A stretch of 61,796 nucleotides of DNA, taken from contig PMCS01000015.1 of NCBI GenBank assembly GCA_003154195.1, positions 1-61,796 of the forward strand, written 5' to 3'. Made by a program: the position numbers and the translations under genes. Under the pieces are notes generated by a model. That model made no database searches, was not told the DNA's origin, and saw only the letters and a program-made list of their open reading frames with translations. This document shows, piece by piece, positions 10,341 to 43,200 of the stretch. Numbering within the stretch: position 1 is the stretch's first letter; every line of letters starts with the position of its first letter. This stretch comes from Candidatus Omnitrophota bacterium (GTDB taxonomy: Bacteria > Omnitrophota > Gorgyraeia > Duberdicusellales > 4484-171).

Positions 10341-10487
10341 CCGGAAGAAAGTAGAGGGCGAGACCGCTTGCCGGAGGCGGGCAGGCAGGGATAACAGAGT
10401 AATGAGAAAAAATACGCATTGCGCAGAAGTTCGAAAAACAGCTTAATCCTGGGAAACACCGGAAGCAGGGGATCGGGGATAGGTTCG

Positions 10488-12056
10488 ATGATGGACAAAG
10501 CATGGAAAACCGCGCGAGAAGTTTTAAAAAATAATTTTAGCTTATGCCTGGTGATATTTGTTTTTTTCGCTTCCCGAATTATCTATTTTTTTTATTTCGG
10601 TGTTCGTTTTGACTGCATTCCCTTAAGTTACTTTTGGCAATTTATCGACCCGGAGCTCTTAAAAAATAATTTGCTTCAAAGCGTCTATTATCTTCACAGC
10701 CAGCCCCCGCTGTTTAATCTCTTTTTGGGAATCGTATTGAAGTTATTCCCCAAAAACTATTCCGCGGCCTTTTGCCTGGTTTATATGGCTATCGGAGCCA
10801 TGTTTTGCGTCACATTGTTTATGGTGATGACGGAACTCGGCGTACGGCCTCCCTTAAGCGCCGGATTGGCATGTTTGTTCGCCGTAAACCCCCTGGTAGT
10901 AGATCATGAAAATTGGCTTTTTTATGAATATCCGACTGCCGCCCTTCTAACCGCGGCGGCGCTATTCCTGCATCGATTCAGCGTTAACAAAAAAACTTCT
11001 GATTGTTTTATTTTTTTTCTGATTCTAACCTTAGTCGTCTACATCAGAGGTTTACTCAGTTTGTATTGGTTTTTATCGATTCTAATGCTCCTGCTGGCAT
11101 TTAATTTGGGCCAATGGAAAAATATCGTTAAAGGATGCGCATTCCCGCTCATCCTGATTCTTGCTTTATACCTGAAACAATACGTGGTTTTCGGTACTTT
11201 TTCCATCAGCGACGCGCAAATCGGACAAAATTTAGCGATCAGCACAACCAGCTCGCTACCCAAGAAAACGTTGAATGCCTTAATCGCACAGAATAAAATA
11301 AGTGGATTAAGCCGAACTGATATATTTTCTTTAGATTTTCCACGGTATGCCTCTTACGGAATTCACCGAAAAAAGACCAACGTGCCCGTTCTGGACGAAA
11401 CTCAAAAATCAACCGGGATAGTCAATACTCACAGCTTAATCTATCTTGATGTCGGAAGGCGCGATTTAAAGGACGCGGCCTATCTTTTAAAGCGTTACCC
11501 TGTGATTGTTTTGCGCAAGCGTATAAAAAAGCTGGTTAAAAATTATTTTTTAACCACTGACCAGTGCGCGCCATATGTTGAGAACCGCTCACCGCGATGG
11601 AAAACATGGAGAAATATTTATAAAAGGTTTTTCCTGGGAGCAACCGCCAACGGCAAATCGGCATTTCTTACCGCGGTACTGCCGTTTTTGCTTATATACG
11701 GCTTTTTTTCGCTTTTCCGGCCTTTCACGACCGGGGCCCCACGGGGCGACGTCCCGTCCCGCTTTCATCCCTCACCTACCGGCGGGGGTATAATAAAACC
11801 AAGTCCCGCCGTTTACGGCAGGCCAGGTTTTATTACCGCTAACGGGATAAAAGGGGTAAGCCATTCTCCGGGAATGGTTATTATTTTTATGATTACTACA
11901 ATCTTTTTTTTAATTGTTTCTACCCCATTTTTGATGTCGGAGCAGACCAGGTATCGCTTCATGGTCGACCCATTTTATTTGATATTATTCGGATTATTTT
12001 TAAATGACGCCGGGAATATGTTGGCCGGCCGTCGAAGCACTCAGCTGTCTTCTTAA
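10488..12056 (+). CDS. Polytopic membrane protein, probable GT-C (ArnT/PMT-like) glycosyltransferase, with a 39-aa palindromic-repeat insertion
   Basis: Many TM segments, HSQPPLF motif, C-terminal RYRFMVDPF; paralog of 12321..13781. Start placed by alignment with the paralog. Confidence 0.7.
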   Translation: MMDKAWKTAREVLKNNFSLCLVIFVFFASRIIYFFYFGVRFDCIPLSYFWQFIDPELLKNNLLQSVYYLHSQPPLFNLFLGIVLKLFPKNYSAAFCLVYMAIGAMFCVTLFMVMTELGVRPPLSAGLACLFAVNPLVVDHENWLFYEYPTAALLTAAALFLHRFSVNKKTSDCFIFFLILTLVVYIRGLLSLYWFLSILMLLLAFNLGQWKNIVKGCAFPLILILALYLKQYVVFGTFSISDAQIGQNLAISTTSSLPKKTLNALIAQNKISGLSRTDIFSLDFPRYASYGIHRKKTNVPVLDETQKSTGIVNTHSLIYLDVGRRDLKDAAYLLKRYPVIVLRKRIKKLVKNYFLTTDQCAPYVENRSPRWKTWRNIYKRFFLGATANGKSAFLTAVLPFLLIYGFFSLFRPFTTGAPRGDVPSRFHPSPTGGGIIKPSPAVYGRPGFITANGIKGVSHSPGMVIIFMITTIFFLIVSTPFLMSEQTRYRFMVDPFYLILFGLFLNDAGNMLAGRRSTQLSS

Positions 12057-12091: not shown

Positions 12092-12145
12092 GGTTATGAT
12101 AACGTACCGACACTGGAGAAAAACACATAAGTTCACATTCCGGTA

Positions 12146-12259
12146 AACCCCGTTAGAGAACTTCGTTCTCTAACGGCATGGCGCGACGGCGGCATTAAAC
12201 CGCCGTCTGCTTCTGGATATATCCCACCGACTCCATCGGTGGCTTTCTCTAACGGGGTA
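12146..12259. repeat. REP-like palindrome family ACCCCGTTAGA...TCTAACGGGGT
   Basis: Same termini at 17113-17148, 18753-18803 and a partial copy at 26281-26294. Confidence 0.75.
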
Positions 12260-12320
12260 AATTGCCTAAACCAAACGTATTATTTATACGCCGACGGCGT
12301 ACCGAAGTAGAAAATCAAGG

Positions 12321-13781
12321 ATGCGTCCACCGATGAACCAAGCAACAAAAACCGCGCGAGAGTTTTTAAAAAATCATTCCCCCTTATGCCTGGTGATATT
12401 TGTTTTTTTCGCCTCACGGGTAATTTATTTTTTTTATTTCGGCGTGCGTTTCGATTGCGTTCCTTTGTATTGCTTCTGGCAATTCATCGACCCGGAACTT
12501 CTAAAAAATAATTTACTTCAGAGCGTCTATTATCTTCACAGCCAGCCCCCGCTGTTTAATCTCTTTTTGGGAATCGTATTGAAGTTATTTCCTGCAAATT
12601 ACCCGACAGTGTTTTATCTGATATATATGGCCATCGGCGTTCTGTTTTGCGTCACGTTGTTTATACTAATGACCGAAATGGGCATGCGGCCATCCTTAAG
12701 CGCGGGATTAACATGTTTATTCACCGCAAGCCCCCTGGTCGTCGATTATGAAAATTGGCTTTTTTACGAATATCCCACCGCCGCCCTTTTAATTGCAGGG
12801 GCGCTATTCCTACATCGATTCAGCGTCAACAAAAAGACCTCGGATAGTTTTATTTTTTTTCTGATCCTGGCCCTGATTGTCTATATCCGAGGGTTGCTCA
12901 GTTTGTATTGGTTCTTATTGGTCCTGATAATTCTACTGGCATTTAATTCCGGCCAACGGAAAAAAATCATTAACGGATGCGCGATACCGCTTATCTTGAT
13001 TCTGGCTTTATACACTAAACAATACGTAATTTTTGACACTTTTTCCATCAGCGACGCGCTAATCGGACAAAATCTAATCGGTACCGCAACCGAAGCGCTG
13101 CCTAGAAACACGATAGGTGCTTTAACCGCACAGGGCAAAATCACCGGATTAAATCGCTGGGATATATTTTCCCTGGATTTTCCCCGGTATGAATCTTATG
13201 GGATTCACCGAAAAAAAACCGGCATACCGATTCTGGATGAAACTAAAAAATCAACCGGATTCGTCAATGCGCATAACTTGATCTACCTTGACGCCGGAAG
13301 ACGCGATCTTAAGGACGCAGCCTATCTTTTAGCCCATTATCCAATGCCGATCTTGCGCAATCGTATAGAAAATCTGGTTGAAAATTATTATTTAACCACC
13401 GACCAGATCAATCCGCCCGTCTATGACCGCACGCCACGATGGGAAGCATGGAGAGACTGGTACAAAAAGTTTTTCCTGGGAGCAACCAGCGACGGCAAAT
13501 CATTGTTACTTACCACGGGACTGCAGTTTTTGCTTATCTACGGATTTTTTTTGCTTTTTTGGCCCTTCGCGACAAAAGAAATAATCCATCCTCCGAAAAT
13601 GGTTATTACTTTCATGATCACCACGATATTTTTTTTAATGGTTCCTACGCAATTTGTAATAGATGGGCAGAACCGATATCGCTTCATGGTCGACCCATTT
13701 TATTTGATATTATTCGGATTATTTTTAAATGATGCGTGGAAGATATTGTCCGGCAGCAGAAGGCCTATAAATGATGGGTGA
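12321..13781 (+). CDS. Polytopic membrane protein, probable GT-C glycosyltransferase (tandem paralog)
   Basis: High similarity to the preceding gene (FWQFIDPELLKNNLLQSVYYLHSQPPLFNLFLG identical). Confidence 0.7.
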   Translation: MRPPMNQATKTAREFLKNHSPLCLVIFVFFASRVIYFFYFGVRFDCVPLYCFWQFIDPELLKNNLLQSVYYLHSQPPLFNLFLGIVLKLFPANYPTVFYLIYMAIGVLFCVTLFILMTEMGMRPSLSAGLTCLFTASPLVVDYENWLFYEYPTAALLIAGALFLHRFSVNKKTSDSFIFFLILALIVYIRGLLSLYWFLLVLIILLAFNSGQRKKIINGCAIPLILILALYTKQYVIFDTFSISDALIGQNLIGTATEALPRNTIGALTAQGKITGLNRWDIFSLDFPRYESYGIHRKKTGIPILDETKKSTGFVNAHNLIYLDAGRRDLKDAAYLLAHYPMPILRNRIENLVENYYLTTDQINPPVYDRTPRWEAWRDWYKKFFLGATSDGKSLLLTTGLQFLLIYGFFLLFWPFATKEIIHPPKMVITFMITTIFFLMVPTQFVIDGQNRYRFMVDPFYLILFGLFLNDAWKILSGSRRPINDG

Positions 13782-13951
13782 AGGATGGGGGAATATTCCA
13801 TTGCCCAATATAATTTTCAGAGGTAGAATAATACCTGATTCGACTATCCCGTTACCCTAAAATAACTATAATTTAGGTGCGGGATGTCCCGAACCTAAAT
13901 TAATTTATTCAAGGAAACGGGACTACCGCCTCACTAAACGCGCTTCGCGCG

Positions 13952-16318: not shown

Positions 16319-16382
16319 ACGGAAAATTTAAATTAAGGGGACACTGTCCCCTTAATTCGAAATCAAATCCGGGAGGAAAAAT

Positions 16383-17111: not shown

Positions 17112-17194
17112 TAAACCCTAGTTAGAGAACAAAGCTCTCTAACGGGGTGAGAGGAAACCATGTTCCCGGAATTCCAAGAAAAGGGGAGAAAAAA

Positions 17195-18618: not shown

Positions 18619-18902
18619 TGAACCGCTCAAAAACCGGGGATTCAGGTGCGATTTTGGCGGCGCGAACGCATAAGACCAATAATCCCGCAGATTTTGGCCA
18701 AAAACCCAAAAAATACCCCTTTTTTCCGCCATTCTGCACCATTTGGTGTATTTACCCCGTTAGAAATTACGGTTATTCAAGATAACCTATTTCTAACGGG
18801 GTTTACTTTTCCTCAAAATGTGATATAAGGGAAGCTCCGGCAATAAAAGGTAGGATAAAGCCTATAAATTGAGGGAAAAGATCAATAGGGGAGGTGTAAG
18901 AT

Positions 18903-21068: not shown

Positions 21069-21210
21069 AAGAAGTATAAAGTAGCGAGTAGCTAGTAGCC
21101 AGTAAAGATATAAAAAAAGCAGGAGGCAGCGAGTAGAAAGTAGCTAGTAGAAGATGGAAAATAATTTTCACCACAGAGAACACAGAGCCCACGGAGAAAA
21201 ACAAGATAAG

Positions 21211-21250
21211 AAAGGGGCGGGGATATAAGTTGAGTGTCCCCGGAAATTCC
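21211..21250 (+). repeat. Representative copy of the cassette-boundary motif AAGGGGCGGGGA-N-TGTCCCCGGAATT
   Basis: Related copies at 14104, 17631, 21677, 23381, 24495, 26223, 26311, 26400, 28700, 29403; inverted copies at 27799 and 31880. Confidence 0.8.
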
Positions 21251-21273: not shown

Positions 21274-21627
21274 ATGGTTATCTGGTTAATCAATTATTGG
21301 CTTTGGCTGGCAATTCCGTTAAGCATGTTTTGGGGAATTTATGGGTGTAAAACAATAAGAGAAGATATTGAAGTAGAAAAAGAGGCCGAAAAGAAAACAA
21401 GAAAGATGTATTTTACAAAACGAATCGGAATTTTTATCTCTGAGTTTATAGGTTCGTTCGCCGGGTGGTGCTGTTTATATATTCTTGTCGTCCGGTTATT
21501 CAGGTTTCCTAAGCTCGACTTTTCGGCGTTTGGCGGCACGGAAATATTTTTGACAATCGCAGCGGTTATAGGGATAGCGGGATATTCGTACGAGTTAACC
21601 AGGTTGACAAAGGAGTGGAAAAAATAA
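21274..21627 (+). CDS. Small membrane hypothetical protein
   Basis: AGGAGG RBS; three hydrophobic segments. Confidence 0.75.
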   Translation: MVIWLINYWLWLAIPLSMFWGIYGCKTIREDIEVEKEAEKKTRKMYFTKRIGIFISEFIGSFAGWCCLYILVVRLFRFPKLDFSAFGGTEIFLTIAAVIGIAGYSYELTRLTKEWKK

Positions 21628-24549: not shown

Positions 24550-24945
24550 ATGCAACAAACAATTTGCTTGCTTTTGAGTCTTTTGTTTTTTTCTGGTTGC
24601 GCATCAGCAAGCTATCAAAGACAACAAGTGCAAGATGACAAAGGCGACAGAATAACCGTAGGCACAGTTCAGCGCAAAATTAATGTAGGGATGAGCTCCG
24701 CAGAAGTAGCTCAAACGTTGGGATCGCCCAATATCGTATCAACGGACGAAGAGCGCAGGGAAGTTTGGATTTACGACAAAATAGCAACAGACACAGTATA
24801 TTCAAATAGCGATGCAGGTATAAAGTTTTTAACAGTTGGCAGTTCAGGCGCCAAATCAACCAATCAGAGAACGTTAACTATTATCATCAAATTTGATAAA
24901 GATGGTAAAGTGCGCGATTTCGCATACCATACTTCCAGTTTTTAA
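24550..24945 (+). CDS. SmpA/OmlA (BamE-like) domain lipoprotein
   Basis: FSGC lipobox; INVGMSSAEVAQTLGSP..EVWIY..IIKFDKDGKV. Confidence 0.8.
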   Translation: MQQTICLLLSLLFFSGCASASYQRQQVQDDKGDRITVGTVQRKINVGMSSAEVAQTLGSPNIVSTDEERREVWIYDKIATDTVYSNSDAGIKFLTVGSSGAKSTNQRTLTIIIKFDKDGKVRDFAYHTSSF

Positions 24946-24958
24946 AGGAGATATTAGT

Positions 24959-25516
24959 ATGAGAAAAAGACATCGATTTTTAAAACTATTTCTTGCGGTT
25001 TTATGCCTATGCATAATGGGCTGCGTTACCATGCCAAAAGGTTTTTTAAAACTCAGCGAAACATCTTTAGAGAAAAGACAATTGCAGATGAGGCAATATG
25101 ACACAACAAATGAAGAACAAATTCTAACCGCAATTGCTGGTGTTTTGCAAGACTTGGGCTTTACCTTGGATAGCAGCGAAACTAAGCTAGGATTTGTAGC
25201 CGCCTCCAAAAAGGCTGACGCAACGAACGGAGGCCAAGTAGCAGGCGCAGCGGTTCTTGACATTCTGGCTGCCTTAAGCGGCAGCTATAGTAACGCTATG
25301 GCTAATTGCGATAGGTCACAAGTAGTCAAGGCATCGATAATCACAAGGTTAGGCCTTGATGGGAAAAAAATAACCGTCAGGGTCACGTTTCAGCGAATTG
25401 TTTGGAACATGGATAACCAAATCAGTAAAGTTGAAAGCATTAATGATCCGAAAATATATCAGAAATTTTACGATGGTTTATCGAAGGCAATATTTTTGGA
25501 GGCACAGAAAATATGA
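24959..25516 (+). CDS. Lipoprotein
   Basis: IMGC lipobox; RQLQMRQYDT...VLQDLGFTL is similar to the next gene. Confidence 0.8.
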   Translation: MRKRHRFLKLFLAVLCLCIMGCVTMPKGFLKLSETSLEKRQLQMRQYDTTNEEQILTAIAGVLQDLGFTLDSSETKLGFVAASKKADATNGGQVAGAAVLDILAALSGSYSNAMANCDRSQVVKASIITRLGLDGKKITVRVTFQRIVWNMDNQISKVESINDPKIYQKFYDGLSKAIFLEAQKI

Positions 25517-25947
25517 AAAAAATAATGAAACGTTGTGGTATTTATATGATTTTATTTCCCTTTGTTGCATTGTCCGGATGCGCAAGCACAGCCAGTAAGG
25601 CTTTTGAGACCAGCGAAAGCCAAGTTAAATTAAGAAGCATGCAGACAAGAGCTTTTGACACAACAGATAAGCAAAAAATGATGCAGACCGTAATTAGCAC
25701 AATGCAAGACTTAGAGTTTGTGATTGATAAGGCTGATTTGATATTGGGTTCTGTTAGCGGTTCCAAGTTTCTTGGAAATGCAGTTGTTGTAATGACTGTA
25801 ACCGTTAGGTCTAGAGGTGAAAAACAATTGCTAGTAAGAGCAAATGCCCAATACGGAATTAAATCGGTAGAGGACCCGGAAACGTATCAAGATTTTTTTA
25901 CCGCACTAGAAAAAGCTATATTTTTAACAGCACAACAAGTAGATTAA
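25513..25947 (+). CDS. Lipoprotein, distant paralog of the preceding gene
   Basis: LSGC lipobox; RSMQTRAFDT...MQDLEFVI and YQDFF..LEKAIFL; ATGA overlap with the upstream gene. Confidence 0.8.
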   Translation: MKKIMKRCGIYMILFPFVALSGCASTASKAFETSESQVKLRSMQTRAFDTTDKQKMMQTVISTMQDLEFVIDKADLILGSVSGSKFLGNAVVVMTVTVRSRGEKQLLVRANAQYGIKSVEDPETYQDFFTALEKAIFLTAQQVD

Positions 25948-25989
25948 AAAAGGCGTCCCCTTTTTAGACCATGAAAATGGAGGTTTGCC

Positions 25990-26154
25990 ATGGCTGACGG
26001 CGGATTTGTGGTAAAATTTGATGGAAAAGAAGTAGTGCGTTGCTACGCAGTTTCTTTCGATTATGACGAATGGCAATACAGGGTCAATAACGGCGAAGCT
26101 AAAGGTTTGCCGGAGGGGTTGGGAAAGATAGAAGTTAAGACGGAAGAAGATTAG
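25990..26154 (+). CDS. Small hypothetical protein (54 aa), not in the ORF track
   Basis: GGAGG RBS; MADGGFVVKFDGKEVVRCY...GLGKIEVKTEED*. Its 3' end recurs at 23019, 26291 and 29358. Confidence 0.7.
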   Translation: MADGGFVVKFDGKEVVRCYAVSFDYDEWQYRVNNGEAKGLPEGLGKIEVKTEED

Positions 26155-26629
26155 AAAGGCGGGGATGATTGAGGAAGATTGTAGTTTTAGGGTCTGACCC
26201 CTTGGTTTTCATCCCCAAGGATAAAAGGGGCGGGGAGTTATGGTAGCTGTCCCCCGAATTCCCTATCTTGTTTGTGGCATTCTCTAACGGGGTAAAGACG
26301 GAAGAAGAATAAAGGGAGCGGGGGATTAGACAGGCTGTTCCAAAATTTTCAGCTTTCAGTGCCTGACCCCGCAGTTTTCGCGGAGAAAAACAAGATAATA
26401 AAGGGGCGGGGATGATTCGGTACGTGTCCCCGGAATTTTTTTTATCTTTTTTACGATAAAAGTGCTAAAATGATGGGTGTTGATGTTTGTTGCGGGCATT
26501 GGTTGAGGAAAATGGAATAATCGGGTACGCGTGGACTTGCGTAGCGCGAGAGGGACTTGGTGATATCGTTTCCCTTGTATAATGGAAGAGTCTGAAGCCT
26601 TGGGTTTTTATTATTAGGAGGGAAGTCAT

Positions 26630-27784
26630 ATGAGTATTTTTTGTGAAACCAAAACACAGAACAATTCACGGAGCATTATAGGCTTCTTGTTGTTTACCTG
26701 TCTTGTACTAAGCTTTGCGGGGTGCGTAACAGCGCCGTATAGTGGAACTGATGTTACCTCCCAATTGATAACCGAGGCTGACATTGTAAACAAGATGGGG
26801 TGGAGTGCTAAGGATGGCTTCAGTGATCAAGCCTTTCCCGGATCTGCCTCATCCGCAGAAGAAATCAGTGTTCGGGTCTACAGGGATGTCGATGAATCCC
26901 TCGCTGCCTATAAGACTTTTGATTTTGACTACACCAGTAAGATGAACCCGCTTCTGGAAAAAGAGCTCTTTCGGCAGTTGGAAAAAGTGCTGCAGGCACA
27001 TGGGTTGACACGCGTAAAAGAGAATCCGCAGATTACGATTAGTATGGACTTTTTTGTCGGTAAGAAGGAACAGTATGCGCCGCCAACCACGGTCACTAGC
27101 ACAGAAATAAAGTCTGTCTGGAACACCGCCGCAATCGGTTGGAATATAGTAGGGTTTTCTTCAGCGGTGCCTATCACAAGCTCCAGAACCGATCCCGGAT
27201 ATACCATAACTAGTTATTACACTAATATCCGGCTCAATTTTCTAAACCACGCCAAATTGGTAGGAGGCGTAAAGCCGGAAATTCCGCCATTGATCTGGCT
27301 CGGCGAAGCGGAACATGGAGGGTTTGATCCGGATATCCGTGGTTTTGCGCCGGTCATGTTTGATGAGCTTATGAAGCACTTTTCGGATCAATCCGCCAAT
27401 TCTTCGAACTGTTATGTGCGCCTTTTTCGTTACGGTAGATTAGGGCTTGGGTTTGATCCTTCGGACTGGCGCGTCATCCGTTATGTAGAGATCTCTTCAG
27501 TGGCGGCCGAACACGGTATAAAACCAGGGGATGTTCTAATAAAAGTCAATGGTAAGGATCCCAAGGGGTCTTCTACTTTTTCGGATTTTCCGTATAATTC
27601 CCAGGATCCCTATTTTCGGTATGTCTTGTCTAATCGGGGCGATTCGGATGTGGAACTGGTAATCAGGTCGGCTGAAACAGGAAAAAGCGCTACGTTTCGG
27701 ATGAGGCCTCGCAGTGAGGATCGCTATCTGTATGTTGATCTAGACGGTCGCATACTTCAAAAAATTGCGGAGTCACCCAAGTAA
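26630..27784 (+). CDS. Lipoprotein with DUF4136-like and PDZ domains
   Basis: FAGC lipobox; YKTFDF; GLGF...SVAAEHGIKPGDVLIKVNG (PDZ). Confidence 0.8.
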   Translation: MSIFCETKTQNNSRSIIGFLLFTCLVLSFAGCVTAPYSGTDVTSQLITEADIVNKMGWSAKDGFSDQAFPGSASSAEEISVRVYRDVDESLAAYKTFDFDYTSKMNPLLEKELFRQLEKVLQAHGLTRVKENPQITISMDFFVGKKEQYAPPTTVTSTEIKSVWNTAAIGWNIVGFSSAVPITSSRTDPGYTITSYYTNIRLNFLNHAKLVGGVKPEIPPLIWLGEAEHGGFDPDIRGFAPVMFDELMKHFSDQSANSSNCYVRLFRYGRLGLGFDPSDWRVIRYVEISSVAAEHGIKPGDVLIKVNGKDPKGSSTFSDFPYNSQDPYFRYVLSNRGDSDVELVIRSAETGKSATFRMRPRSEDRYLYVDLDGRILQKIAESPK

Positions 27785-28102
27785 GAAAAGGAATCCCGGA
27801 ATTCTGGGGACACAATCGACTGGTACAAAAATTATACACGTTTTTTAGATGGTAAGAAAATAGGCACTTTCTAGGGCGGCAAGCGTTAAGGTACTATTAA
27901 ACAGGTTCTAACCTCGTCTACCCAGCGACCCGGACAATCCCAAAACCGCTCCGCAAGGGGCAGTTTTTTATTCCTCTTCGCCGAATACCCCGTGGCTTGC
28001 AGATTGGGTCAAATCAATCTGCGCCGGGTTCTGTTCTTTGACAATATAGCGTAAAACAACACCAATATATACGGTAAAAATCTCCATACATAAAGGAGGT
28101 AA

Positions 28103-28505: not shown

Positions 28506-28700
28506 TTGGCGGCGCTTTTATTGTTGCTTGCCGCTATGGTTTTATATTTATTCGGGATTGCCTGGTTTCTGCGCCAAGCCTTTCGGATGTTACGGGCCAA
28601 AAAGTATTTTCACGCTTTACTTTGTATTTTAGCGGCGGTTTTGGTATTTATGGCCGGCAGATTCGCGCCGGCGCTTTTTAGGATCCACCCCCAAGGGTAA
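28506..28700 (+). CDS. Small membrane protein, possibly a 5'-truncated fragment
   Basis: Two hydrophobic helices; ends HPQG* directly before a boundary motif. Confidence 0.5.
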   Translation: MAALLLLLAAMVLYLFGIAWFLRQAFRMLRAKKYFHALLCILAAVLVFMAGRFAPALFRIHPQG

Positions 28701-28738
28701 AAAAGGCGGGGAGTTATGGTAGCTGTCCCCCGAATTCC

Positions 28739-29349
28739 TTGTCAGGAGTCCTGCTGCAATATTTTGGAGTATTAAAAAGCTATTTGCGGGATAACGATAG
28801 CGAATTTAAAAATAATGTTATCAAATGCGTTAATGGGTTTGCTATAGGAAAAAGCAAAAGAATGAATTGGGTTTTTGATGATGCGTTGTTATTTTTAAGC
28901 TCAGAAAAAAACACTATCAGGAAAAATATATTACAAGAATTTATTAGTTTTCTTAATGGGGAAAAAGATAGAAATGAATGTGTGGAAAAGATAACAGGGT
29001 CAATTGCTTATTAATCAAATGCAACAAGAAAAGCTGAGCAGTATCTTTTATATTTGTTGCGCAACTAATTATATTGCAAATAGTTAAATAGAACGTCTTG
29101 TGTCCTTTTTCGATAAACACAATAAAGGCTGTTTTTGGAGCTCAGATTTCAAAAGATATTACCGAGATAAAACCCGATCAAAAAGTTGAATCCCAAATCA
29201 AGGTAAATGTGAAAAATAATTCCAGAAAAATAGCCAAACAAATGACTCTTGAAGAGATAAAAAATACGGACTTATATGACTTTCTGATTAAGATAAAAAC
29301 GGTCTTGGATAATTCTGGCAAGCTAAAAAGCCCAAGCATCAAATCTTGA
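28739..29349 (+). pseudogene. AT-rich gene fragments (28739-29014, 29098-29349), probably one disrupted gene
   Basis: Begins abruptly at a boundary motif with no RBS; two consecutive short ORFs. Confidence 0.35.
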
Positions 29350-29462
29350 TCAGGCTTTGCCGAAGGGATTGGGTAAGATAGAAGTGAAGACGGAAGAAGA
29401 ATAAAAGGAGCGGGGAAAGAAAAAGGTGTTCCCTTTTTCCTTTTTACAAGAAGGAAGACGAT

Positions 29463-31851: not shown

Positions 31852-32014
31852 GTTAGTTATTTTTTCTCCGTGCCCTCTGGAAGTTCCGGGGACACGATAC
31901 CTAACTATTTTATATTAAATTTTCCATTCGTGTTATTCGTCCCCAAGGGGAGGCTACGCTTCACTTCGCACTGTGATTCGTTGTTAAAGATATTTTGCTT
32001 CTCTTCGTGCCCTG

Positions 32015-32118: not shown

Positions 32119-33195
32119 ATGAAAAAAATACTTTTTGCCTTAATTGCTATAGCCGCTATCGGTCTTTTTTATTCTTTTCAACTGCCGTCAGTGAGAGCCG
32201 ATGAAGCCAGGACATTTATCGGCACGATCAAATCTTTCCGGCCGGTTATGGGCCGGCCGTCAAAGTGGTATTGCGCCAGGTTTACCGCGGTTGCCGATAA
32301 CGGCGAGAAAAAAGAAATCTGGATATTAGGCGCTTCCGGAGCCGCTCCGACTTCGGTCACGAATTTTGACGGTAAGCCGGTGGACAAACTGGGATACAAT
32401 CACCGGCCACAAGTAGGTAAAAAAGTCGAAGTTAAATACACAATTGCAGAAAACGGCCGCAATGACGCGGTTTCAATTCGTTATGTCACCGCGGATTATG
32501 TCCCGGCGCCAGCAGCACCAGCCGGCAGCCAGGCCGCTGACGTCCCCTCCGAGCCGAAAAATCTTATTACCGGCCGGATCAACGAGGTTTGGCCGGGCGT
32601 GCCGCGCTCGCTGAAAGTCAAAGATTGCAAGATCCGGGTCATCCCGGACAGCGGTAAAGACGCCTATTTCGAAACCAAAGATGCCCTGATCAGCGATACA
32701 AACGGCACTGCCCTTGCCTGCGATTCGTCAAACCTCAAAAATGAAAGAGTAGAGGTGATCTATTCGGAAGCCGACGGTTCGATTTACGATCCCTATAAAC
32801 CGGCTAAAGCGGTTGCCATACATTATCTTGCCGGGAACAGCGTAAGCAGCCCGACGTCTTCGACGACTGCCGCTCCCGCGGCCGCGAATAATATCTTTGT
32901 AGGGAAAGTCGTAAAAGGCGGGATCACGTTCAACCCGCGCTGTCCTTACTGGTTCGTGATCATGACCGACAACGGCGAGAAGAAAGATCTCTGGATACCC
33001 AGGGATAATATGCGCGTTACCGGTCTTAACGGCAGCCAGGTATACGGCGCGCCTCCCCGGGAAGGTAAAAAAATTGAAGTCCAGTATTCCGTCGGCGACC
33101 ATGGCCAATATGAGACGGTTTCGATGCGTTATGTCCCCGAGAACTACGTATCCCAGCCCGGCGCGGCCCCGGCAAAGAAGATAGAGAGAAGATAG
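32119..33195 (+). CDS. Secreted protein with three repeated beta (OB-like) domains
   Basis: GGAGG RBS; signal peptide; DNGEKK..W and GKKVEVxY units recur. Confidence 0.85.
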   Translation: MKKILFALIAIAAIGLFYSFQLPSVRADEARTFIGTIKSFRPVMGRPSKWYCARFTAVADNGEKKEIWILGASGAAPTSVTNFDGKPVDKLGYNHRPQVGKKVEVKYTIAENGRNDAVSIRYVTADYVPAPAAPAGSQAADVPSEPKNLITGRINEVWPGVPRSLKVKDCKIRVIPDSGKDAYFETKDALISDTNGTALACDSSNLKNERVEVIYSEADGSIYDPYKPAKAVAIHYLAGNSVSSPTSSTTAAPAAANNIFVGKVVKGGITFNPRCPYWFVIMTDNGEKKDLWIPRDNMRVTGLNGSQVYGAPPREGKKIEVQYSVGDHGQYETVSMRYVPENYVSQPGAAPAKKIERR

Positions 33196-33414
33196 AGGGG
33201 TCAGGCCTCAAGAATCAAGATTGATCATCTCTCATCTGTGAAAATCTGTGTAATCTGTGGACAATATTTTTTCGTTGTTTTCTCCGTACCCTCCGTCCTT
33301 CCAGGAGGCTCCGCCCGGCTTTGCCAGGCTCCGCACTGTCCTCTGTGGTGAAAATTTTTCCTTCGTAGTCCAGCCAGCCTTGATTTTTACCCCCCGGAAT
33401 GATATACTTTGTTC

Positions 33415-33591
33415 ATGAAAGAGTCAAAAATAATGAATGCGATCAAAGAAGAGATGCGGGATGACCAGAGGAAGATGACTCCCCAGGAACGTCTCCGGGC
33501 TTTCGTGAACCATTCCCGCTTGATGGTGCAGTTGTCGGAAGCCGGGGAAAGATACCGCCGGCGCTTTAAACCCCGCAGGAACGCAAAATGA
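33415..33591 (+). CDS. Small protein, putative antitoxin partner
   Basis: KMTPQERL motif; ATGA-coupled to the downstream NTase gene. Confidence 0.65.
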   Translation: MKESKIMNAIKEEMRDDQRKMTPQERLRAFVNHSRLMVQLSEAGERYRRRFKPRRNAK

Positions 33592-34148
33592 GAGCTAAAA
33601 ACAGCGGCCAATCGGCGTTACTCCTTCTCGATGTTATCGACTTACTCTCGGAAAAGAAAATACCTTACGCGATCATCGGAGCGCTTGCCGCTTCTTTTTA
33701 CGGCACGGTCAGGGCCAGCGTTGATGCCGACGCGATTATTTCTCTTGCAACATCGCCTCTTAGCGCCGGGGATTTAGCCCATCTTTTATCCCAAAGCGGC
33801 ATGCCGGCAGGATACCGCCGGGGCGACGGCGACGATCCCCTTCAGGGCGTAATCAGCGTTAAGGACAAATACGGCAACCGGGTAGATTTAATAACCGGCA
33901 TCAAAGGCATGGATGATAACGCCTTTAATCGTACCGCCGTAACTTCTTTCCTGAAACATAAAATCTGCCTCATCGGCGTAGAAGATTTTATCGCAATGAA
34001 GCTATTCGCCGGCAGTACCAAGGACATTGCCGATGCCCGCGCCGCCATAGATATTTCCCGCCCGCGCATTAATACAAGCCTGTTGAGAGAAATAGTTCAA
34101 AAATACGGGAAAAGGACTTCCCATCTGCTTGATTCCTTGCTTAAGTGA
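33588..34148 (+). CDS. Nucleotidyltransferase-fold protein (DUF6036/AbiEii-like), putative toxin
   Basis: YAIIGALAASFYG..RASVDAD; EDFIAMKLFAGSTKDIAD. Confidence 0.8.
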   Translation: MRAKNSGQSALLLLDVIDLLSEKKIPYAIIGALAASFYGTVRASVDADAIISLATSPLSAGDLAHLLSQSGMPAGYRRGDGDDPLQGVISVKDKYGNRVDLITGIKGMDDNAFNRTAVTSFLKHKICLIGVEDFIAMKLFAGSTKDIADARAAIDISRPRINTSLLREIVQKYGKRTSHLLDSLLK

Positions 34149-34518
34149 AATGTTAAAAAACCAGAAAGGGAAACACATTTATTTTTTCTCCGTGCCTTCT
34201 GGTAAAAATATTTTCCCTTTCTTGTTTTCTTCGTAGACTTCGTCCCCTGCGATGAGGCTACGCTTCGCTCCGCACTGTTCTTCGTGGTAGGCATAGGTTT
34301 TATTTTTATATCATTCTCTGTAAAAATCTGTGAAATCTGTGGACAATATTTTTTTATTTTTCCTTTGCGTCCTTCGCGGGAAAATCTCCCTCCCAAAATA
34401 CCCCCCGACATTTATTCATATTCTTCGTGAACTTCCTACCCTTCGTGGTAAAATATTCCTGTTTTTCTCTGCGGTGAATTTTTTTATAAAAAGGGAGAAG
34501 GAGCCTTTTTAAAAATAT

Positions 34519-35106
34519 ATGACCGAAAAACTAAAAGAAATATCCATAATCATCGATGTCTGGGATGATGTTTTTTCCGATTTTGACCCCCGGCCGCTGG
34601 ATGAAAGAGCCTTATCGGAAGATTTTATCAGCGAGCTCAAAAAACGATACCGGGAGACTCCCCGGGGAGACCTTTTGATATCTTTTTATGCTCCCAGAAC
34701 CCTGAAGCATGAAGACTCGGAACGAATGGTTACCCAAAGGCTTAAGCAATATTTTGGCGACCGGGCATTACAAAAGAAACAGGAATTATTCCGCACCAGG
34801 AAAAAGGGCGGCGGGTTTGTCCTGGGAGGAATATTTTTCTTAACTTCCATCACGCTTCTGGCTTATTTTAATATTTTCCCGGTACTCATGATTAAGATCC
34901 TGGAAATAGTACTGGTGCCGCTGGGCTGGTTCGGCATCTGGGAAGGTTTTTCGAAAATCGTCAACGCGTCTCCCGGCAGTTCCCAGGAAGGAATACTTTT
35001 CCGCAAGCTTTCAAAAGCAGAATACCGGTTTAATTATGCGAAGAACCCCGGCGGCGGAGTGAGAGGAAACAGCGAGCAGCCAGAAAGACCGATGGATGAA
35101 GGATGA
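34519..35106 (+). CDS. Conserved membrane hypothetical protein
   Basis: DDVFSDFDPRPLDERALSEDF motif; two TM helices; GWFGIWEG. Confidence 0.8.
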   Translation: MTEKLKEISIIIDVWDDVFSDFDPRPLDERALSEDFISELKKRYRETPRGDLLISFYAPRTLKHEDSERMVTQRLKQYFGDRALQKKQELFRTRKKGGGFVLGGIFFLTSITLLAYFNIFPVLMIKILEIVLVPLGWFGIWEGFSKIVNASPGSSQEGILFRKLSKAEYRFNYAKNPGGGVRGNSEQPERPMDEG

Positions 35107-35205
35107 AGGACGAGAGATGAGGGGTAAGGGAAGTCGAAAGCAGCGAAAAATACCGAAAGATGAGGGAAGATAGATGAGAAATGAAGTTGAAAATAAAGAT
35201 TAAAA

Positions 35206-36213: not shown

Positions 36214-36544
36214 GGGACGAGGGATGAAAGATGATGGGCGAAGGATGAGAGAAACGGTAAAGAGTGAAAACATCGGTTGTATTTGTAACGATAGAAGATA
36301 ATGAACCTCCCTGCAGCAAGCTGCAGGGTATCAAATATCTATAAGGTAACCCTGGATAAGGTACAACCCTGCGGCAAGCCGCAGGTAATAAAATCTGGTT
36401 CGCCGTAACCGGCGAAACTTGATTTTATTATGCGGCTAATCGTTTTTCTGCGCCTACGGCTTGAAAAACTCAAGCCTTAGTAATAAAAACCCGTAAAGAC
36501 GGTAAGCAGGATAAAAGAGGATAATTAAAAACGAGGGTGGGACG

Positions 36545-36988: not shown

Positions 36989-37234
36989 ACTCTGGCGGAT
37001 ACATAAAACCTAACATTATGGGGTTAAAATCCTACCCAAACTAGCGGTTTTGCTACTCCCACCCACACGGCCGTTGTTGGGCAAAAACCGGCGGTATTAT
37101 CAAAAAATTCCCCAAAAAACCTTCGGAATCCCCCCTTGTTTTTCCCTAAAAAATATGTTATATCTTCCTACTATAATATAATCGTTTCTGCCAGCAAAAA
37201 ACTATATAAAACAATATTTTTTAACGGAGGAATG

Positions 37235-40200
37235 ATGCTTTCGTTTCTCGCTCAACCCAAACGCAAACTCTTCTCTAAGTTAACTCTTATACTGGTACTA
37301 TTCTCTTTTTTAGGTACCAGCCTGGGCACCAACTACGCCCACGCCGCTTTAGCCCTCCCTGAGCCTACCCAGTTGCTAGGCCTGTCTCCAAGCTACTCCT
37401 TTCCGATATTAAAGGGATTAAAACTCAACCCGGCTAACCCGCTACAGATAGAATTCATTATCGATAGCGCTAACCAGGATACGGTAAGTAAAGAAGAAGC
37501 ATCAAAACTGATAAGATACTTCTTAGCCGGATTGACTATCCCGGAAGACGATCTCTGGGTAAACCTATCCGTATATGAAAAAGACCATATAATCAATGAA
37601 TCTGCCGCTGCTACCGACGTAGGCCGGGATATGTTAGCCCAGGACTATGTCTTAAAGCAATTAGTCTCCTCTTTGACCTATCCGGAGAGTGAAGTGGGTA
37701 AAAGCTACTGGCAGAAAGCCTATCAAGCCGCGGCCAAGGCCTTTGGTACTACTGATATCAAACTAGATACCTTCAATAAGATATGGATCGCTCCGGATAA
37801 AGCCGAAGTCTATGAATATAAGAATACCGCCGTAGTCAACCAGGCTACTCTTAAGGCAATGCTCGAACAAGACTTTCTCGCATTGCAGAAAGGAACGAAG
37901 GACGAAGTCCGCCAATTTGTAAAACAAATTGGCGAGACCTCGCCATCCGCAGGATGGCGGGAACGAGGGATGAAGGACGAAAAAGCAGGACAAATCAACA
38001 AGGTGGCTTCGGATGTAATGCGTGAAGTCGTAGTACCTAAAATAACCGAAGATATCAATTCCGGCAAGAACTTTGCCACTTTAAGACAGATATACTACTC
38101 TCTGATCTTAGCTAAATGGTTTAAAGAGAAGTTTAAAGAATCCTTCTATAAACACTATATCAACCAGAAGAAGATCAAAGGCATCGATATCCATGACCCT
38201 ACGGCTAAAGAGCAGATCTATAACCTCTATACCCAGGCCTTTAAGAAGGGTATCTATGACTATATAAAAAAAGAAGTTGTACCGGTTGAGCCGGTTATGC
38301 CGGTTGCAGGGTTAAAATCTTCTAACGGACTCAACCGGCCTAACAGTTTTAAAACCGTTAGACGTAGGTACTTCTCCGGAGGAATAAACTTTCTGATCGG
38401 AGTTGTCTCCTCAGTCGTACCCTCGGCCACGTTTGATGCGACCCAGAGAATGGGTAAGTTTAACGCCGTGGGGACGCTTTTGACCAATGAGGTAGCTAAT
38501 GATAACTCGATAGGGGTGGCGGGAAGCCCGGCGGGGATGGAAACCGATGGACGAGGAATGAGGGATGAAGGAAGAGGGGAAGATACCGTAGGACGTGAGG
38601 ACGTGGGACGTGGGACGAAAGGAGCAAGCGCCAGTCCGGCTTCCGCCAGCCCCGTTAAGGATTTTGACGTTTTCTTAGGAGTTATCTTAAACGATGAAAG
38701 CCTCCAGCACGCGCATCCCGCGATTTACCAAAAAATTAAAGCCCGGGGCTCGGCAAACAAAGTAAGAGGAGATATCGTCAAGGAGTTGGATCTTATCAGA
38801 ACCCAATTAGGTGATGCGCAGGGGCCGGTGGATTTAGAGGCATTGCACCAATATTTGCTCGCTAAGGCCCAGGATTTTCGCGACAAAGGTGATTATAAAT
38901 CCGAGGCGATAGCCTATTTCCATGCGTTAAGAGTGTTGGCCGGGCCGATAAGCTCGTTGACTGAATTGATGGTGCACGACATTGCGTCCAAAGACCATTA
39001 CTCTTCTGTCCAGAAGTCATTGTTAGACGCGATATCCCGGTCGTACCGGGCTATCCCCCAGCATGAGATAGATTATTTTAATACTTTATGGAAATCCCGG
39101 AATACATCAATCCGGGAGCTATGGCAGTGGGTACAGAGAAACACCATTGTCGGGTGTTTAGATTATGTGGTTGACAGCGGCGATGGTTTCTGGGCAGGCC
39201 GCAGCCGCTGGGATAAGATTGACCAATCCTGTAAGTTTTTTGAAGCTTTGGAATCTCACCGGACGGGAGAAAGCAATGACCATTGGTATGATTATCTAAA
39301 CAGCAGAAGAGCGGCGGGAGAGGAGCCGTTGGATAGAGAACTATTAGAAGCAATGCAGGAAGGATACGACCGGATAGAGCAGGGAGGAAAAGACGAGACA
39401 ATAAAAAAAATAATATTCTTATCCAACCTTACTATGGATTATCCCAAGATTCTTTTAGGTAATGATGACGCCAGCGTAAGGCCGGTGCTGTGGCCTTTTT
39501 ACAAAATGCTTCCGATTGAAAAGGAAGATACGGAGCTGCTGCTTGTTCTTGCCGAAGAACACCGTGATTACCGGACCCTGGGGCTTGGCGATAGCCGCGG
39601 CCCCGAGGCATTTGTTAAAAAGCTTTCAGTTGAACCTCCCCAGCAGGAAGAAGAACGGCTGCCCGAGCCGGCTTACGACGCGCCGGCGGCAGCTAAATTA
39701 AAAGAAGCATTCAACGGAAACGGCGCGGATGTCGCAGGAAAATTAGAGGCGTTATACCAAAGCGGAGATTTAGCCAGAGCGATATCTTATCTTGCCCTGC
39801 TGGACCGGCCCAAGACAAAAGGGGTCACTATTTTACAGCATTGCGTACAAGTCGTCCGGTGGATGGCCGCAGTCGATGAGGGCGATTTTGCCGGATTCTC
39901 TGCTTTGAGAAAAGGTAAACCTTACATCCCTGAAAGTCACTTCCGCAGTTTAAGCCGGGCGTTGCGCCAGGCGCGGGATTATATCGCCGGATTATACGAC
40001 GAGCAAACGGCGAATCGGCTTATCTACCTGGCCGCGTTTATGCATGATATCGGGGATATCTTCAATTACGGCGACCACACCACCAGGGGAGCGGCGATGA
40101 TCGAGCCTGTGCTGGCGATCCTGGGCATTAATGACCGGCGCATTGCCAACTGGTTCCGGTTTATCATCAGGTACCATTCTGAATTCGGCGGTATGAATAT

Positions 40201-43200
40201 CGCGGAAAAGACCAACGCCCCGATTTTAGAGGCGCTGAAACAGGAATTTGATTTGCAAAGCGCGGGAGAAGCGGCCGAGGCGGATATGCTTTTGAAACTT
40301 ACGGTAGCAATCAATTCCGCGGACGTTATGTCTTATCAGGACGGAGTATTTTTTACCGCAGACGACGCCGAGCTAATGGCGGGTTACTTAAGCCTGGAGA
40401 AACTGGTAAGGTTCGACGCCGCAGAGTTCCGCCGGTTAAGATACGCCTGCAACGAGCGTGGAGTAGTAAACGAATTCAGGCTTGATGTTTTAGGCAAGAC
40501 AATGCGATTACTGCAGAAGCGTTACCGGGGATTCGCGCCGTTTCTGGGGTCAGCTGAAATGGGCCATTCTAAGGAAATATTTGCTAATCTTTCCGAGACC
40601 GACGTCGGGAGATTATTGAGGCTATCCTATATTATATCCCGCGCGCCGGGCCAAAACGCCGAAGCTCGCACTTTTGATTTTACCGCTTCCCGCCGGCTGG
40701 CCCCGTTAAGTTTCCAGCCGCTTCATGAAAGGCTGGCCGAGGTAGATTTTGAAAGATTAGCCGAGCTTCCCATTCATGATGCCGTCCGCTATCTGACCGA
40801 AATGGGATTGATTACCTATCTGAGCGGCGATGAAGGGACGGTGTATTACAATAATAAGTATTTAACCCATATTATACGTTATTTCAGCGCCGCGGCGATA
40901 AATACCCTGGCTTATTACGCTTCGCGCGGCGTCGGCACGCTTACCGACGACCATCTGGGCAACTTTTTAGTTATGTATAATTTGTCCGAAATCCACCGCT
41001 TAAGGATGTTTGCAAAGCACTGGCCGGTAATCCGTTTGTTATATGCCCTTTTAAACGGCGTGGTCAGAGGCGAAAAGATGTTTAATTTAAAGAGCATGGC
41101 GCCTAAGTTTGAAAACAGGAACGAAGAGCCTAAGGACCTGCTCTTAAGTATTGCCCGGGATTTAATCACGGAAGACCAGCAATACAGCCGCCAGCATCAG
41201 GAGGTTTATGACGCGCTTCGCGAGATCGACCAAGCCGGCCATATGCAGATTCTGATCGATTGGTTGAGCCGCGCCAATACGGTACGCTTGAACTATACCG
41301 CCCGCTGGGTTGATTTTGGGGCGGCGGGGTTTGTAAAATTTATTTATACCCTGGCTCTTTTATGGAGTAGAAGAACCGCCCAGGAAAAAGACAGGCCATA
41401 TTTATTTGCCGGAAAGTATATCGGAAAGCTGGAGAGAGAAAAAGTCGCGATTGTGGCTAAGACAGTGCCGGATATCGCAGGGCAATTCCAGAAACTTTGC
41501 GCGGGAGATATTTCCGAAGCAAAGTTCATCAGCGAAACTTTTGGTTTAACTGCCGAGGGATATTACGAAGATGCCGAAAAGACGATTGTTACTTTAACCC
41601 AGGCGGCGGCCGCGGCGAGCCCGATGGAAATGAAAACCGAAAGACGAGGGATGAAGGATGAAGGACGAAAAGATGATATTGCCGCGGAACGCGGGACGAA
41701 GGCGGGGAGCCCGGCAATTCCCGGGAACGCGCCAAGAATTCCCGTGACGTTTATTGCTTCTTCCGATCCTTATACGGTGAAGGGTGAAATTATAGTGCCC
41801 GAGGACGCGAAAAATGGTAAAGCAAAAATCTGCATACTGTCGATGGGCATGTTCATAGCATTATGGTCGAATATCTGGATTGAAAACGGCCGGATGATGC
41901 AAATAACCAATAGTGCTCAAACTAATGGGCTTACGCATAGCATTGCTTATGATGCCGTCAGGGATGTGTTGACAGTCGAAGCGCGTAACCTCAGCAATAC
42001 CCGTCAATTAGAGGCGTATCTTATCTCCGCCGCCAGCCCGGCCGAAGGCAAGACGAAAGTCGGATTGGTTTCAAGCGCGGTACCTCAAAGGATTCGGCGT
42101 CATGTAATAAAAAAGAAGGACGGCGTCGATCCTGAATATCTCGCAGGAATAAATGCCAAAGAAAAAAAGACGATAGTCATATACGGCGGGCTGGGTTCGT
42201 TAGGCGAGAGATTTCTGGGGCCCGGCATCCGCGAGCTGAACGATACATTTAACGTAGATTTCATCGCGGTGGACACCAAAGATCCTTCCCGGGAAGCCGA
42301 CAGGCGTTTTATAAAAAAACGTAAACAAGTGCTTAAAGATGCGGGTTTGCCGGTTAGCGCTTATTTTTCTATCGGAAATTTTGGTAAAGCGCTGGATAAG
42401 GCACGGGGAACGATTCGCATAAAAGGAAGAGATATTAAAGTCGACGGAGTTATCACTGCGGTACCTACTAAGTATCACCTCAAGTACGCGCAAACATGGG
42501 TCAGGAGAAACATACCGGTATGGATGGAAAAACCCATTACGATGGTTGACGAAATTCCCGGTTTAAAACGACTGAATACCCAGCATCCCGGAAAAATATT
42601 CGCGGTAGATTTTTTTATGGACAGCGATGCGTTGATGTCGGTCTTAAAAGATAAAGATATTTTAGGCGGCATAGGAAAAATTAAGCGTATCGACGGCCGC
42701 TGCGTTGAGACATGGGGGGTTGAGCGCGAACCCAGGAAGTGGCTCCTTGATCCCGCGATAAGCGGAGGCGGATTGATGATAGACACTGCGGTCCACCCCC
42801 TCGCGATGATCGAGTCGGTCTTAACAACAAAAGGGATGACGCTTGGGCAAGCGGAGGTTGAGGATTGCCGGCTTGCCCGGTATGTAAATAACCCTGCCGA
42901 TAAGATTGTTCCCAGCCAAACCGAGACGTATGGTTGGATTAAAGGGCGAGTAGGCGATATTGAATTTTATGTAGACAGCGGTAAAGGTGTAGGCCGGGTA
43001 TATTATGGAATCACCATAACCGGCGACAAGGGAAGCGTAGAGGTATTTGTAGGAACAGAAACCCTGGATCCTTATATTAAGGTAACGCATAAAGACAGCA
43101 GCGTCGATATGTATCGTTTTTCAAAAGGAAGCCTGGGGTATAAGAGGACATTTTTGGATTTCATGTTATTCTTGCACGGTTCTAAGAAACACGACGGAGT

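Follow-up and report, generated by a model that had tools for sequence, protein, structure and literature searches.

The stretch of DNA analysed here, called the window, is the whole of contig C33 (61,796 bp) of the Omnitrophota assembly G000, which holds 2.48 Mb in 34 contigs and is 92% complete; C33 makes up 2.5% of it. Region 26100-26440 of the window lies within a 475-nt gap between an open reading frame (ORF) of 54 aa at 25990-26154 (+ strand) and a PDZ/DUF4136 gene at 26630-27784. The gap holds a stack of short repeats, which is considered here together with a transposase gene on another contig of the assembly, C7. A preliminary description of this sequence had listed four gene tails in the gap, each with a 'boundary site', and had interpreted them as a stack of collapsed gene cassettes. 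All four items were confirmed in the sequence, and their matches in a blastn search of the stack against the complete 2.48-Mb assembly were far beyond chance.

The first tail is the true end of the 54-aa gene, which ends ...KIEVKTEED with the stop TAG at 26152-26154 and is followed by AAAGGCGGGGAT at 26155-26166. The second, catccccaaggataa at 26210-26224, encodes HPQG-stop, which also terminates ORF 28506-28700. The third is gtaaagacggaagaagaataa at 26292-26312 (VKTEEE-stop), and the fourth is cggagaaaaacaagataa at 26381-26398, repeated at 21192-21209. By blastn, 26106-26165 matched 29356-29416 at 87% over 61 columns (E 5e-11); 26210-26267 matched 28686-28743 at 90% over 58 nt, including an exact run of 34 nt (E 2.5e-12); and 26381-26438 matched 21192-21248 at 86% over 58 nt (E 9e-10). 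A site does recur after the tails, but it is of two kinds. The second and fourth items hold the core ...GGTA(G/C)(C/G)TGTCCCC(C/G)GAATT, while the first and third have only a G-rich box, which closes a hairpin with a longer loop.

The stack consists of four modules in the same orientation and in the order A-B1-A'-B2. Modules A and A' have a purine-rich stretch ending VKTEE(D/E)-stop, then a G-box AAAGG(A)GCGGGG and a long-loop hairpin. Modules B1 and B2 have a short stop-terminated stretch, a G-box and the core GGTA(G/C)(C/G)-TGTCCCC-SGAAYT. The unit A+B1 (26134-26273) is 67% identical to A'+B2 (26292-26452) over 162 columns (blastn), with nhmmer E values of 7e-7 and 2e-6. Tandem Repeats Finder returned no rows for the stack because the unit copies are less than 70% alike. 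Each module resembles its stack partner less than it does a copy at another place in the window, which lies at 28.7 kb for B1, at 21.2 kb for B2 and at 29.4 kb for A and A'. Seven segments that are copied elsewhere tile 319 of the 333 nt (96%) of 26106-26438 (blastn).

Module A (26134-26215, + strand) contains the gene tail VKTEED-stop, a G-box at 26155-26166 and a long-loop hairpin closed by TCATCCCC at 26208-26215. In the DNA fold, 26162-26168 pairs with 26209-26215 (z-score 0.03). Part of the module, 26147-26204, matched C31:43318-43258 at 85% (blastn, E 2.5e-9). Module B1 (26210-26267, + strand) contains CATCCCCAAGGATAA (tail 2), a G-box at 26226-26237 and, at 26238-26262, the core, which corresponds to the terminal inverted repeat (TIR) of the transposase described below. 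It matched three TIR copies on C7 over 23-26 nt at 96-100% (blastn), and its E value was 1.7e-5 with an nhmmer profile of the core, here called the S profile. Between B1 and A' lies a solo arm of 24 nt, GTGGCATTCTCTAACGGGGTAAAG (26274-26297, + strand), from an inverted-repeat family that elsewhere frames a GIY-YIG nuclease gene; its blastn matches are many, of 17-23 nt at 95-100%, on many contigs.

Module A' (26292-26378, + strand) contains VKTEEE-stop at 26292-26312, a G-box variant at 26313-26325 and a long-loop hairpin closed by CCCCGC at 26367-26372 (fold z-score -0.06). Its part 26292-26341 matched 29384-29432 at 84% (blastn, E 2.6e-6). On the minus strand, 26345-26391, inside A', reads ...KTAGSGTES-stop, the tail of two integron-cassette ORFs on C13 and of an ORF in another genus. 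The identity of this motif was 83-88% to C13:35867-35822 and C13:34225-34192, and 28 nt matched at 100% in genome G006. Module B2 (26381-26438, + strand) contains CGGAGAAAAACAAGATAATAA (tail 4), a G-box at 26402-26413 and a diverged core at 26411-26438, followed by a T-run to 26452; its E value with the S profile was 0.0026.

Three relatives of these modules lie elsewhere on the + strand of the window. The sister of B1 (28686-28743; S profile E 1.1e-5) includes the last codons and the stop of the hydrophobic 64-aa ORF 28506-28700. The sister of B2 (21181-21250; nhmmer E 4e-5, S profile E 0.0023) lies 24 nt ahead of the start of gene 21274-21627. At 29351-29432 there is an orphan module A, made up of the final 17 codons of a 54-aa-gene copy, a G-box and a hairpin with a T-run. 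It does not share the reading frame of ORF 29098-29349, which precedes it.

The view of the tails as orphan gene 3' ends was correct for the 54-aa gene, whose 3' end recurs as 17 codons at 29351-29403 and as 6-7 codons at 26292-26312 (tail 3), but tails 2 and 4 proved to be parts of the repeat unit. A full-length donor of these orphan copies adjoins the stack, and three paralogs were found by tblastn: on C34 (75% over 52 aa), C5 (73%) and C22 (74%, with an internal stop). The 54-aa protein had no match in Pfam and no usable match in the protein Atlas. Tail 3 forms a fusion with the solo arm TTCTCTAACGGGGT, from a family whose 11-mer core, CTCTAACGGGG, has 40 copies in the genome, mostly as inverted pairs. 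One such pair frames a GIY-YIG-like ORF at C5:57392-57690. This small gene and its arms (ACCCCGTTAGAGAG ... CTCTCTAACGGGGT) occupy C5:57246-57700, immediately where a 54-aa-gene paralog ends. The same arms form hairpins without a gene in three gaps of the window: at 12140-12265, at 17112-17146 and inside 18619-18902.

Tail 2 (CCCAAGGATAA) represents the inner portion of the repeat that flanks the transposase gene. At the transposase gene on C7, CAAGGA(T/C)AA adjoins the core and encodes the last residues of the enzyme and its stop. Tail 4 ends no + strand ORF of at least 40 aa, either at 26398 or at 21209. Several dispersed copies have a similar CAC(A/G)(A/G)AGAAAAA piece ahead of the core, as does the 3' end of the transposase gene itself. 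Tail 4 belongs to the repeat unit as a conserved piece on its upstream side. Between 21 and 30 kb, six of the seven + strand matches to the G-box have TAA or TAG at most 3 nt upstream, and a single one of these stops terminates an ORF of at least 40 aa. Since it recurs at the G-box mostly without an ORF, the stop belongs to the repeat unit. A role of the G-box as a ribosome-binding site followed by a start codon was considered and rejected: its spacing to ATG is 0-1 nt, unlike that of the GGAGG boxes at real starts here.

Judged by its sequence, the 'boundary site' core GGTAGC-TGTCCCC-SGAAYT is the TIR of a predicted Y1/HUH transposase gene at C7:40491-41156. This is one of five matches to Y1_Tnp (PF01797) in the genome, and it is a single-copy gene, its next best match in the genome being 38% identical. 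The gene is flanked by inverted copies of the core repeat (S copies), with arms of 27-30 nt that are 93-96% complementary and 698-837 nt apart. On its right side the repeat begins at the stop codon (...GTCAAGGACAAATAA-TTATGGTAGCTGTCCCC...). On its left side there are three tandem S copies (about C7:40286-40459), one of them with the first 19 nt of the transposase ORF. The C7 protein scored 39.8 bits against Pfam Y1_Tnp (cut-off 23) and matched NCBIfam REP_Tyr_transpos, the tyrosine transposase associated with repetitive extragenic palindromes (REPs), at E 2.7e-14. Its sole match in the PDB was 4ER8, E. coli TnpArep (E 5e-4), to whose HUH motif and tyrosine the C7 residues NHVHLI and RYVERNP align. 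No match to a TnpB-type partner (PF07282) was found in the 92%-complete genome.

The comparison set consisted of 40 other genomes, every one from a different genus than G000. Orthologs of the C7 transposase were found in G003 (79% amino acid identity) and G020 (81%), flanked by the same core, which lies on both sides of the gene in G003 and directly after the stop in G020. G003 also has an orphan piece of about 70 nt from the transposase 3' end with a TIR. The 13-mer GGTAGCTGTCCCC occurs 13 times in G000 and in 3 of the 40 other genomes (4, 2 and 1 copies), and its reversed control had no occurrence in all 41.

The initial site pattern was too strict and gave eight matches, all on C33; blastn and a looser pattern then showed copies genome-wide. 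The S profile was built from copies picked with a regular expression that includes the core. At nhmmer E<0.05 it found 25 S copies on nine contigs and on both strands. The copies are extragenic: 5 of the 25 lie in an open frame of at least 120 codons, compared with 86% of 2000 random windows. Conservation spans positions -12 to +14 around TGTCCCC, the core being invariant through the selection of the copies; the outer boundary is sharply defined, in contrast to a fuzzy inner one. Two end-anchored tandem S copies lie at C18:32431-32508. Duplications of 9-11 nt at the outer edge occur at C7 2662, C7 41167, C7 40301 and window 21235, and also in G003. Such a sharp outer and ragged inner edge characterises the repeat next to the transposase gene, its dispersed copies and the copies of another genus. 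It suggests where enzymes of this little-studied tyrosine transposase class may cut and that they may drag neighbouring DNA along. RAYT-like genes (RAYT, REP-associated tyrosine transposase) flanked by REPs, or by TIRs with the motif GGGGWSAS, are described in passages of Di Nocera, De Gregorio & Rocco (2013, PMC3733652) under the names 'TIRtrons' and 'TIRYT'. The reverse complement of the core reads GGGGACAG / GGGGACAC, in agreement with this motif.

Two other features near copies of the core were recorded. A perfect palindrome, TTAAGGGGACA-C-TGTCCCCTTAA, at about 16333-16355 is made of two minimal cores head to head and stands before gene 16383. The words CACAGA(T/G) have 108 loose matches on 21 contigs and often lie just upstream of the transposase-repeat core; their loci include window 21150-21200 and 33230-34400, and C7:111660-112040. 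The CAC-word repeats were assigned to no transposase, as their copies lie on one side only of the second Y1 gene on C7.

An assembly artefact would have accounted for the stack in another way. All or part of the stretch is present in 20 metagenome runs from 17 studies (peat, permafrost), none of them on record as RNA. Four of these runs, not flagged as possible sources of the assembly, were compared with the stretch at contig level. Contigs of run X4 (25945-26262 and 26233-26891) and a contig of X6 (26306-27000) showed 0 differences. Since independent assemblies reproduce the stack, it is no artefact of one assembly. In the four runs, at the level of contigs, which are unable to reveal rare variants, the comparison gave no insertions, deletions or joints, and the predicted excision or allelic variation was not seen save in one ambiguous contig of X5. 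Parts of the stretch have no contig cover in runs X3, X5 and X6, and no inference was drawn from these gaps.

The operon 24550-25947 upstream of the gap is conserved in six other genera. Neither the stack nor the 54-aa gene nor the next gene was found at the operon locus in those six relatives. The genes that follow the operon differ, so that the stack coincides with a break in synteny and borders a variable region. In G008 (locus L011), about 270 nt past the ortholog of gene 25513-25947, there is a broken 54-aa-like start, ATG GCC GAA GGT GGC TTT TAG. The small gene may thus be old at this place. In G022 (L009) and G037 (L010), reverse core-like words, AATTCTGGGGACAC and ATTCGGGGACAG, stand 160-185 nt upstream of the 24550 orthologs, at positions that differ from the window's.

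Other repeats were noted in the window. Purine-rich tracts of the GGATGAAGGACGA type lie at or just after the stops of several genes, and also inside a giant gene (189-219, 13762-13799, 35091-35185, 36219-36249, 38546-38586, 41642-41679, 43505-43542 and 60601-60641). Genes 10419-12056 and 12321-13781 are tandem paralogs without a known family, with about 80% DNA identity. Two giant genes of more than 3000 aa, 1-9168 and 37136-46675, have common starts and ends (87-93% and 82%).

The stack is likely a cluster of four co-oriented repeat modules in the gap after a small gene, resembling the bacterial interspersed mosaic elements (BIMEs). It probably consists of short repeat modules of selfish DNA, an already-described kind of clutter, and not of a gene-cassette system. 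The preliminary interpretation holds as far as stacked repeat units are concerned, each with a few stop-terminated codons and a recurring site, in DNA of a mobile type; it fails for excision scars of the integron kind, as discussed below. The units were probably copied with variable inner-side DNA while the outer edge stayed fixed. One possible route would be a cut by the Y1 transposase at the outer edge on single-stranded DNA; recombination or slippage between copies would be an alternative. Repeated rounds would leave nested 'orphan tails'.

Several results weigh against this interpretation. Modules A and A' have no S core, their copies outside the stack lie only at 29356-29432 and C31:43258-43318, and their tie to the transposase is indirect because the shared G-box is the sole link. 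All four modules are co-oriented, whereas the orientation alternates in classical BIMEs, as described by Nunvar et al. (2010, PMC2817692). The C7 protein scored 53.3 bits against REP_Tyr_transpos, which is below the equivalog cut-off of 80. The S profile was made from pattern-selected copies, so that its core positions are invariant by construction. Among ten stretches folded as DNA, the stack modules had z-scores between -0.8 and +0.9 and the transposase-flanking copy one of +0.91. A REP in the strict sense has a GTAG tag that lies outside a stable stem-loop of 5-13 bp. Because the folds are no better than those of shuffles, the copies appear to lack the palindrome property of such a REP. Stems are of 5-7 bp with loops of 8-14 or about 40 nt; GTAG is present, but inside the loop in the window copies, and the transposase-flanking copies form no stable hairpin.

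Further opposing points concern the surroundings. Of the 25 S copies, seven are on C33, and six of the seven are on the gene strand, which gives a cassette-like look. A 2.4-kb accessory block lies between two S copies that agree exactly over 34 nt; its PDZ-domain gene (the next gene after the stack) was matched in 1 of the 40 relatives, and weakly. Gene order breaks directly after 25947 in all six relatives with the upstream operon. The X5 contig (window 26213-26669 and 28656-28738) links the sequence upstream of 28686, by way of the shared 34-nt site, to 26263-26669, which is exactly what recombination at the site would give. This junction reflects either a circle or tandem duplication formed at the site, or a path error through the 34-nt repeat at about 5x depth.

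A plain local tandem duplication of a stretch of about 150 nt followed by drift, with no transposase involved and with the other similarities due to ordinary recombination of dispersed repeats, is an unlikely origin of the stack. The near full-length alignment of 26134-26273 with 26292-26452 in the same module order would be expected from it, and the microhomology GT(A/T)AAGACGG at the solo-arm junction also agrees with it. However, the half-units are nearer to outside copies (B1 90%, B2 86%, A' 84%) than the units are to each other (67%). The end-anchored pattern also recurs at the transposase gene and in another genus.

The transposase might also have a larger part. A Y1 enzyme of the TIRYT type would copy from the outer-edge cut over variable inner DNA and so move the 3' ends of neighbouring genes, and the repeats would be crossover points at which accessory blocks duplicate, loop out or exchange. 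The nested orphan tails, the identical 34-nt copies around the 2.4-kb block and the X5 junction fit this. If true, it would be an HUH-nuclease counterpart of cassette shuffling, but it is rather improbable.

The proposal that a cassette system, whether integron-like or based on another site-specific recombinase, recombines at these sites, and that the units are scars of insertion and excision, is very unlikely. In its favour, the genes between 14 and 37 kb are small, share one orientation and for the most part belong to no known family, with sites in several of the gaps between them. The strand bias on C33, the identical copies bracketing the accessory block and the X5 junction, which is that expected of a circle or tandem duplication at the site, would also agree with it. 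The genome does contain an integron integrase (TIGR02249, 410 bits against a cut-off of 265) at C29:39739-40698, and S copies adjoin true attC sites on C18.

Against it, no integron features were found at the stack. An attC site has the inverse core box RYYYAAC and the core box GTTRRRY at its two ends; neither box was found on either strand in 26050-26500. A pattern search gave nine attC sites of the genome itself, on C13, C18, C27 and C29 and none on C33. These are much longer and quite different from the window's sites; they share ...TAAC..ATCCAGC...GCTGATT..GTTA, and canonical attC sites lie beside the C29 integrase. The 32 window ORFs scanned, which lie between 9.7 and 37 kb, yielded no match to an integrase or recombinase family, and TIGR02249 was above its cut-off on C29 only; the window is an entire contig, past whose ends an integrase is possible. 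The site forms an inverted repeat around a Y1 transposase gene and occurs on both strands of nine contigs. Tail 4 ends no ORF of at least 40 aa. No insertions, deletions or joints were seen in the four runs. The X5 junction crosses a 34-nt exact repeat at about 5x depth, where a path error is possible; the assembler's word size, which we take to be 31, is shorter than this repeat.

A second integron-like stretch was observed at C13:32540-35950. It includes a near-copy of the region by the C29 integrase, has canonical attC sites and contains a Y1 transposase gene (32885-33463) placed as a cassette. Two of its cassette ORFs end ...TTG(T/S)xTES-stop, and this tail also occurs antisense at window 26349-26378 and in genus G006.

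It is also very improbable that the modules are functional RNA or DNA signals, such as stacked terminators or mRNA-stabilising hairpins that insulate the upstream operon, taken here as 24550-26154, from the next gene. Every module is placed after a stop codon, and the stems vary while pairing is kept (CGGGGA/TCCCCG, GGGACA/TGTCCC, GGGAA/TTCCC and GCGGGG/CCCCGC). T-runs follow B2 and the module at 29.4 kb only. Terminator or mRNA-stabilising roles have been assigned to some REPs, as stated in parts of PMC3733652. However, a scan for terminators (G+C-rich stem, loop of 3-8 nt and T-run) found none at the modules and three elsewhere in 25500-27000, against 1.4 expected. A scan for promoter consensus sequences found nothing at the modules. 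No Rfam family reached its gathering score anywhere in the window, nor did 25900-26700 have a match at E up to 1. With the module folds no better than those of shuffles, these results give no support for a structural-RNA role. Inverted copies also occur on C33, at 31880-31911 (E 0.001) and, at E 0.45 only, at 27798-27817. The site copy ahead of gene 24550 is missing at all five orthologous operons examined, which argues against a conserved promoter or leader.

With the stack regarded as a BIME-like repeat cluster, the puzzling sequence is explained without a new recombination system. What is new here is the link between the window's 'boundary sites' and the C7 transposase. Caution is advised in such repeat-rich genomes, where short patterns of a gene end plus a site are usually parts of selfish repeats.

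Among known systems, rolling-circle HUH elements of the IS91/ISCR type have a fixed end, copy adjacent DNA of variable length and leave truncated gene pieces behind. The likeness is one of analogy only, as the enzyme here is Y1 and not Y2. The stack also resembles a cluster of attC sites without an integrase, with small co-oriented genes, a site after each and 3' ends that overlap the site, and a true integron is present in the same genome. It differs from such a cluster in having no attC boxes or resemblance to attC, no integrase on the contig, copies on both strands and copies that flank a transposase gene.

Like the stack, the BIME and REP clusters of enterobacteria and pseudomonads, as described in PMC2817692 and by Bertels & Rainey (2011, PMC3116915), are composite intergenic mosaics that lie downstream of genes, combine two repeat types in alternation and are repeated in tandem. 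Relative to these clusters, the modules of the stack are co-oriented, the stems are short and the loops long, and the copies number tens and not hundreds. The stack also has interleaved fragments of two other selfish or repeat families. No mention of Omnitrophota was found among 10 of the 84 papers from the REP, RAYT and IS200 literature.

The closest likeness is to TIRtrons and REPtrons. Passages of PMC3733652 describe TIR families as moderately abundant and organised as dimers or clusters, and REP termini as often supplying the stop codon of flanking ORFs. Similarly, a single-copy Y1/HUH gene lies here between inverted short repeats that carry GGGGWSAS. Its roughly 25 extragenic copies occur singly, as dimers and as clusters reiterated with flanking DNA, and their ends provide stops. 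The differences are the Omnitrophota host, the joining of the window core to a G-rich box with a weak hairpin, and a C7 protein that falls under the RAYT equivalog cut-off and is known here from its sequence. With these differences, the S family and the predicted C7 transposase fit the TIRtron/REPtron class.

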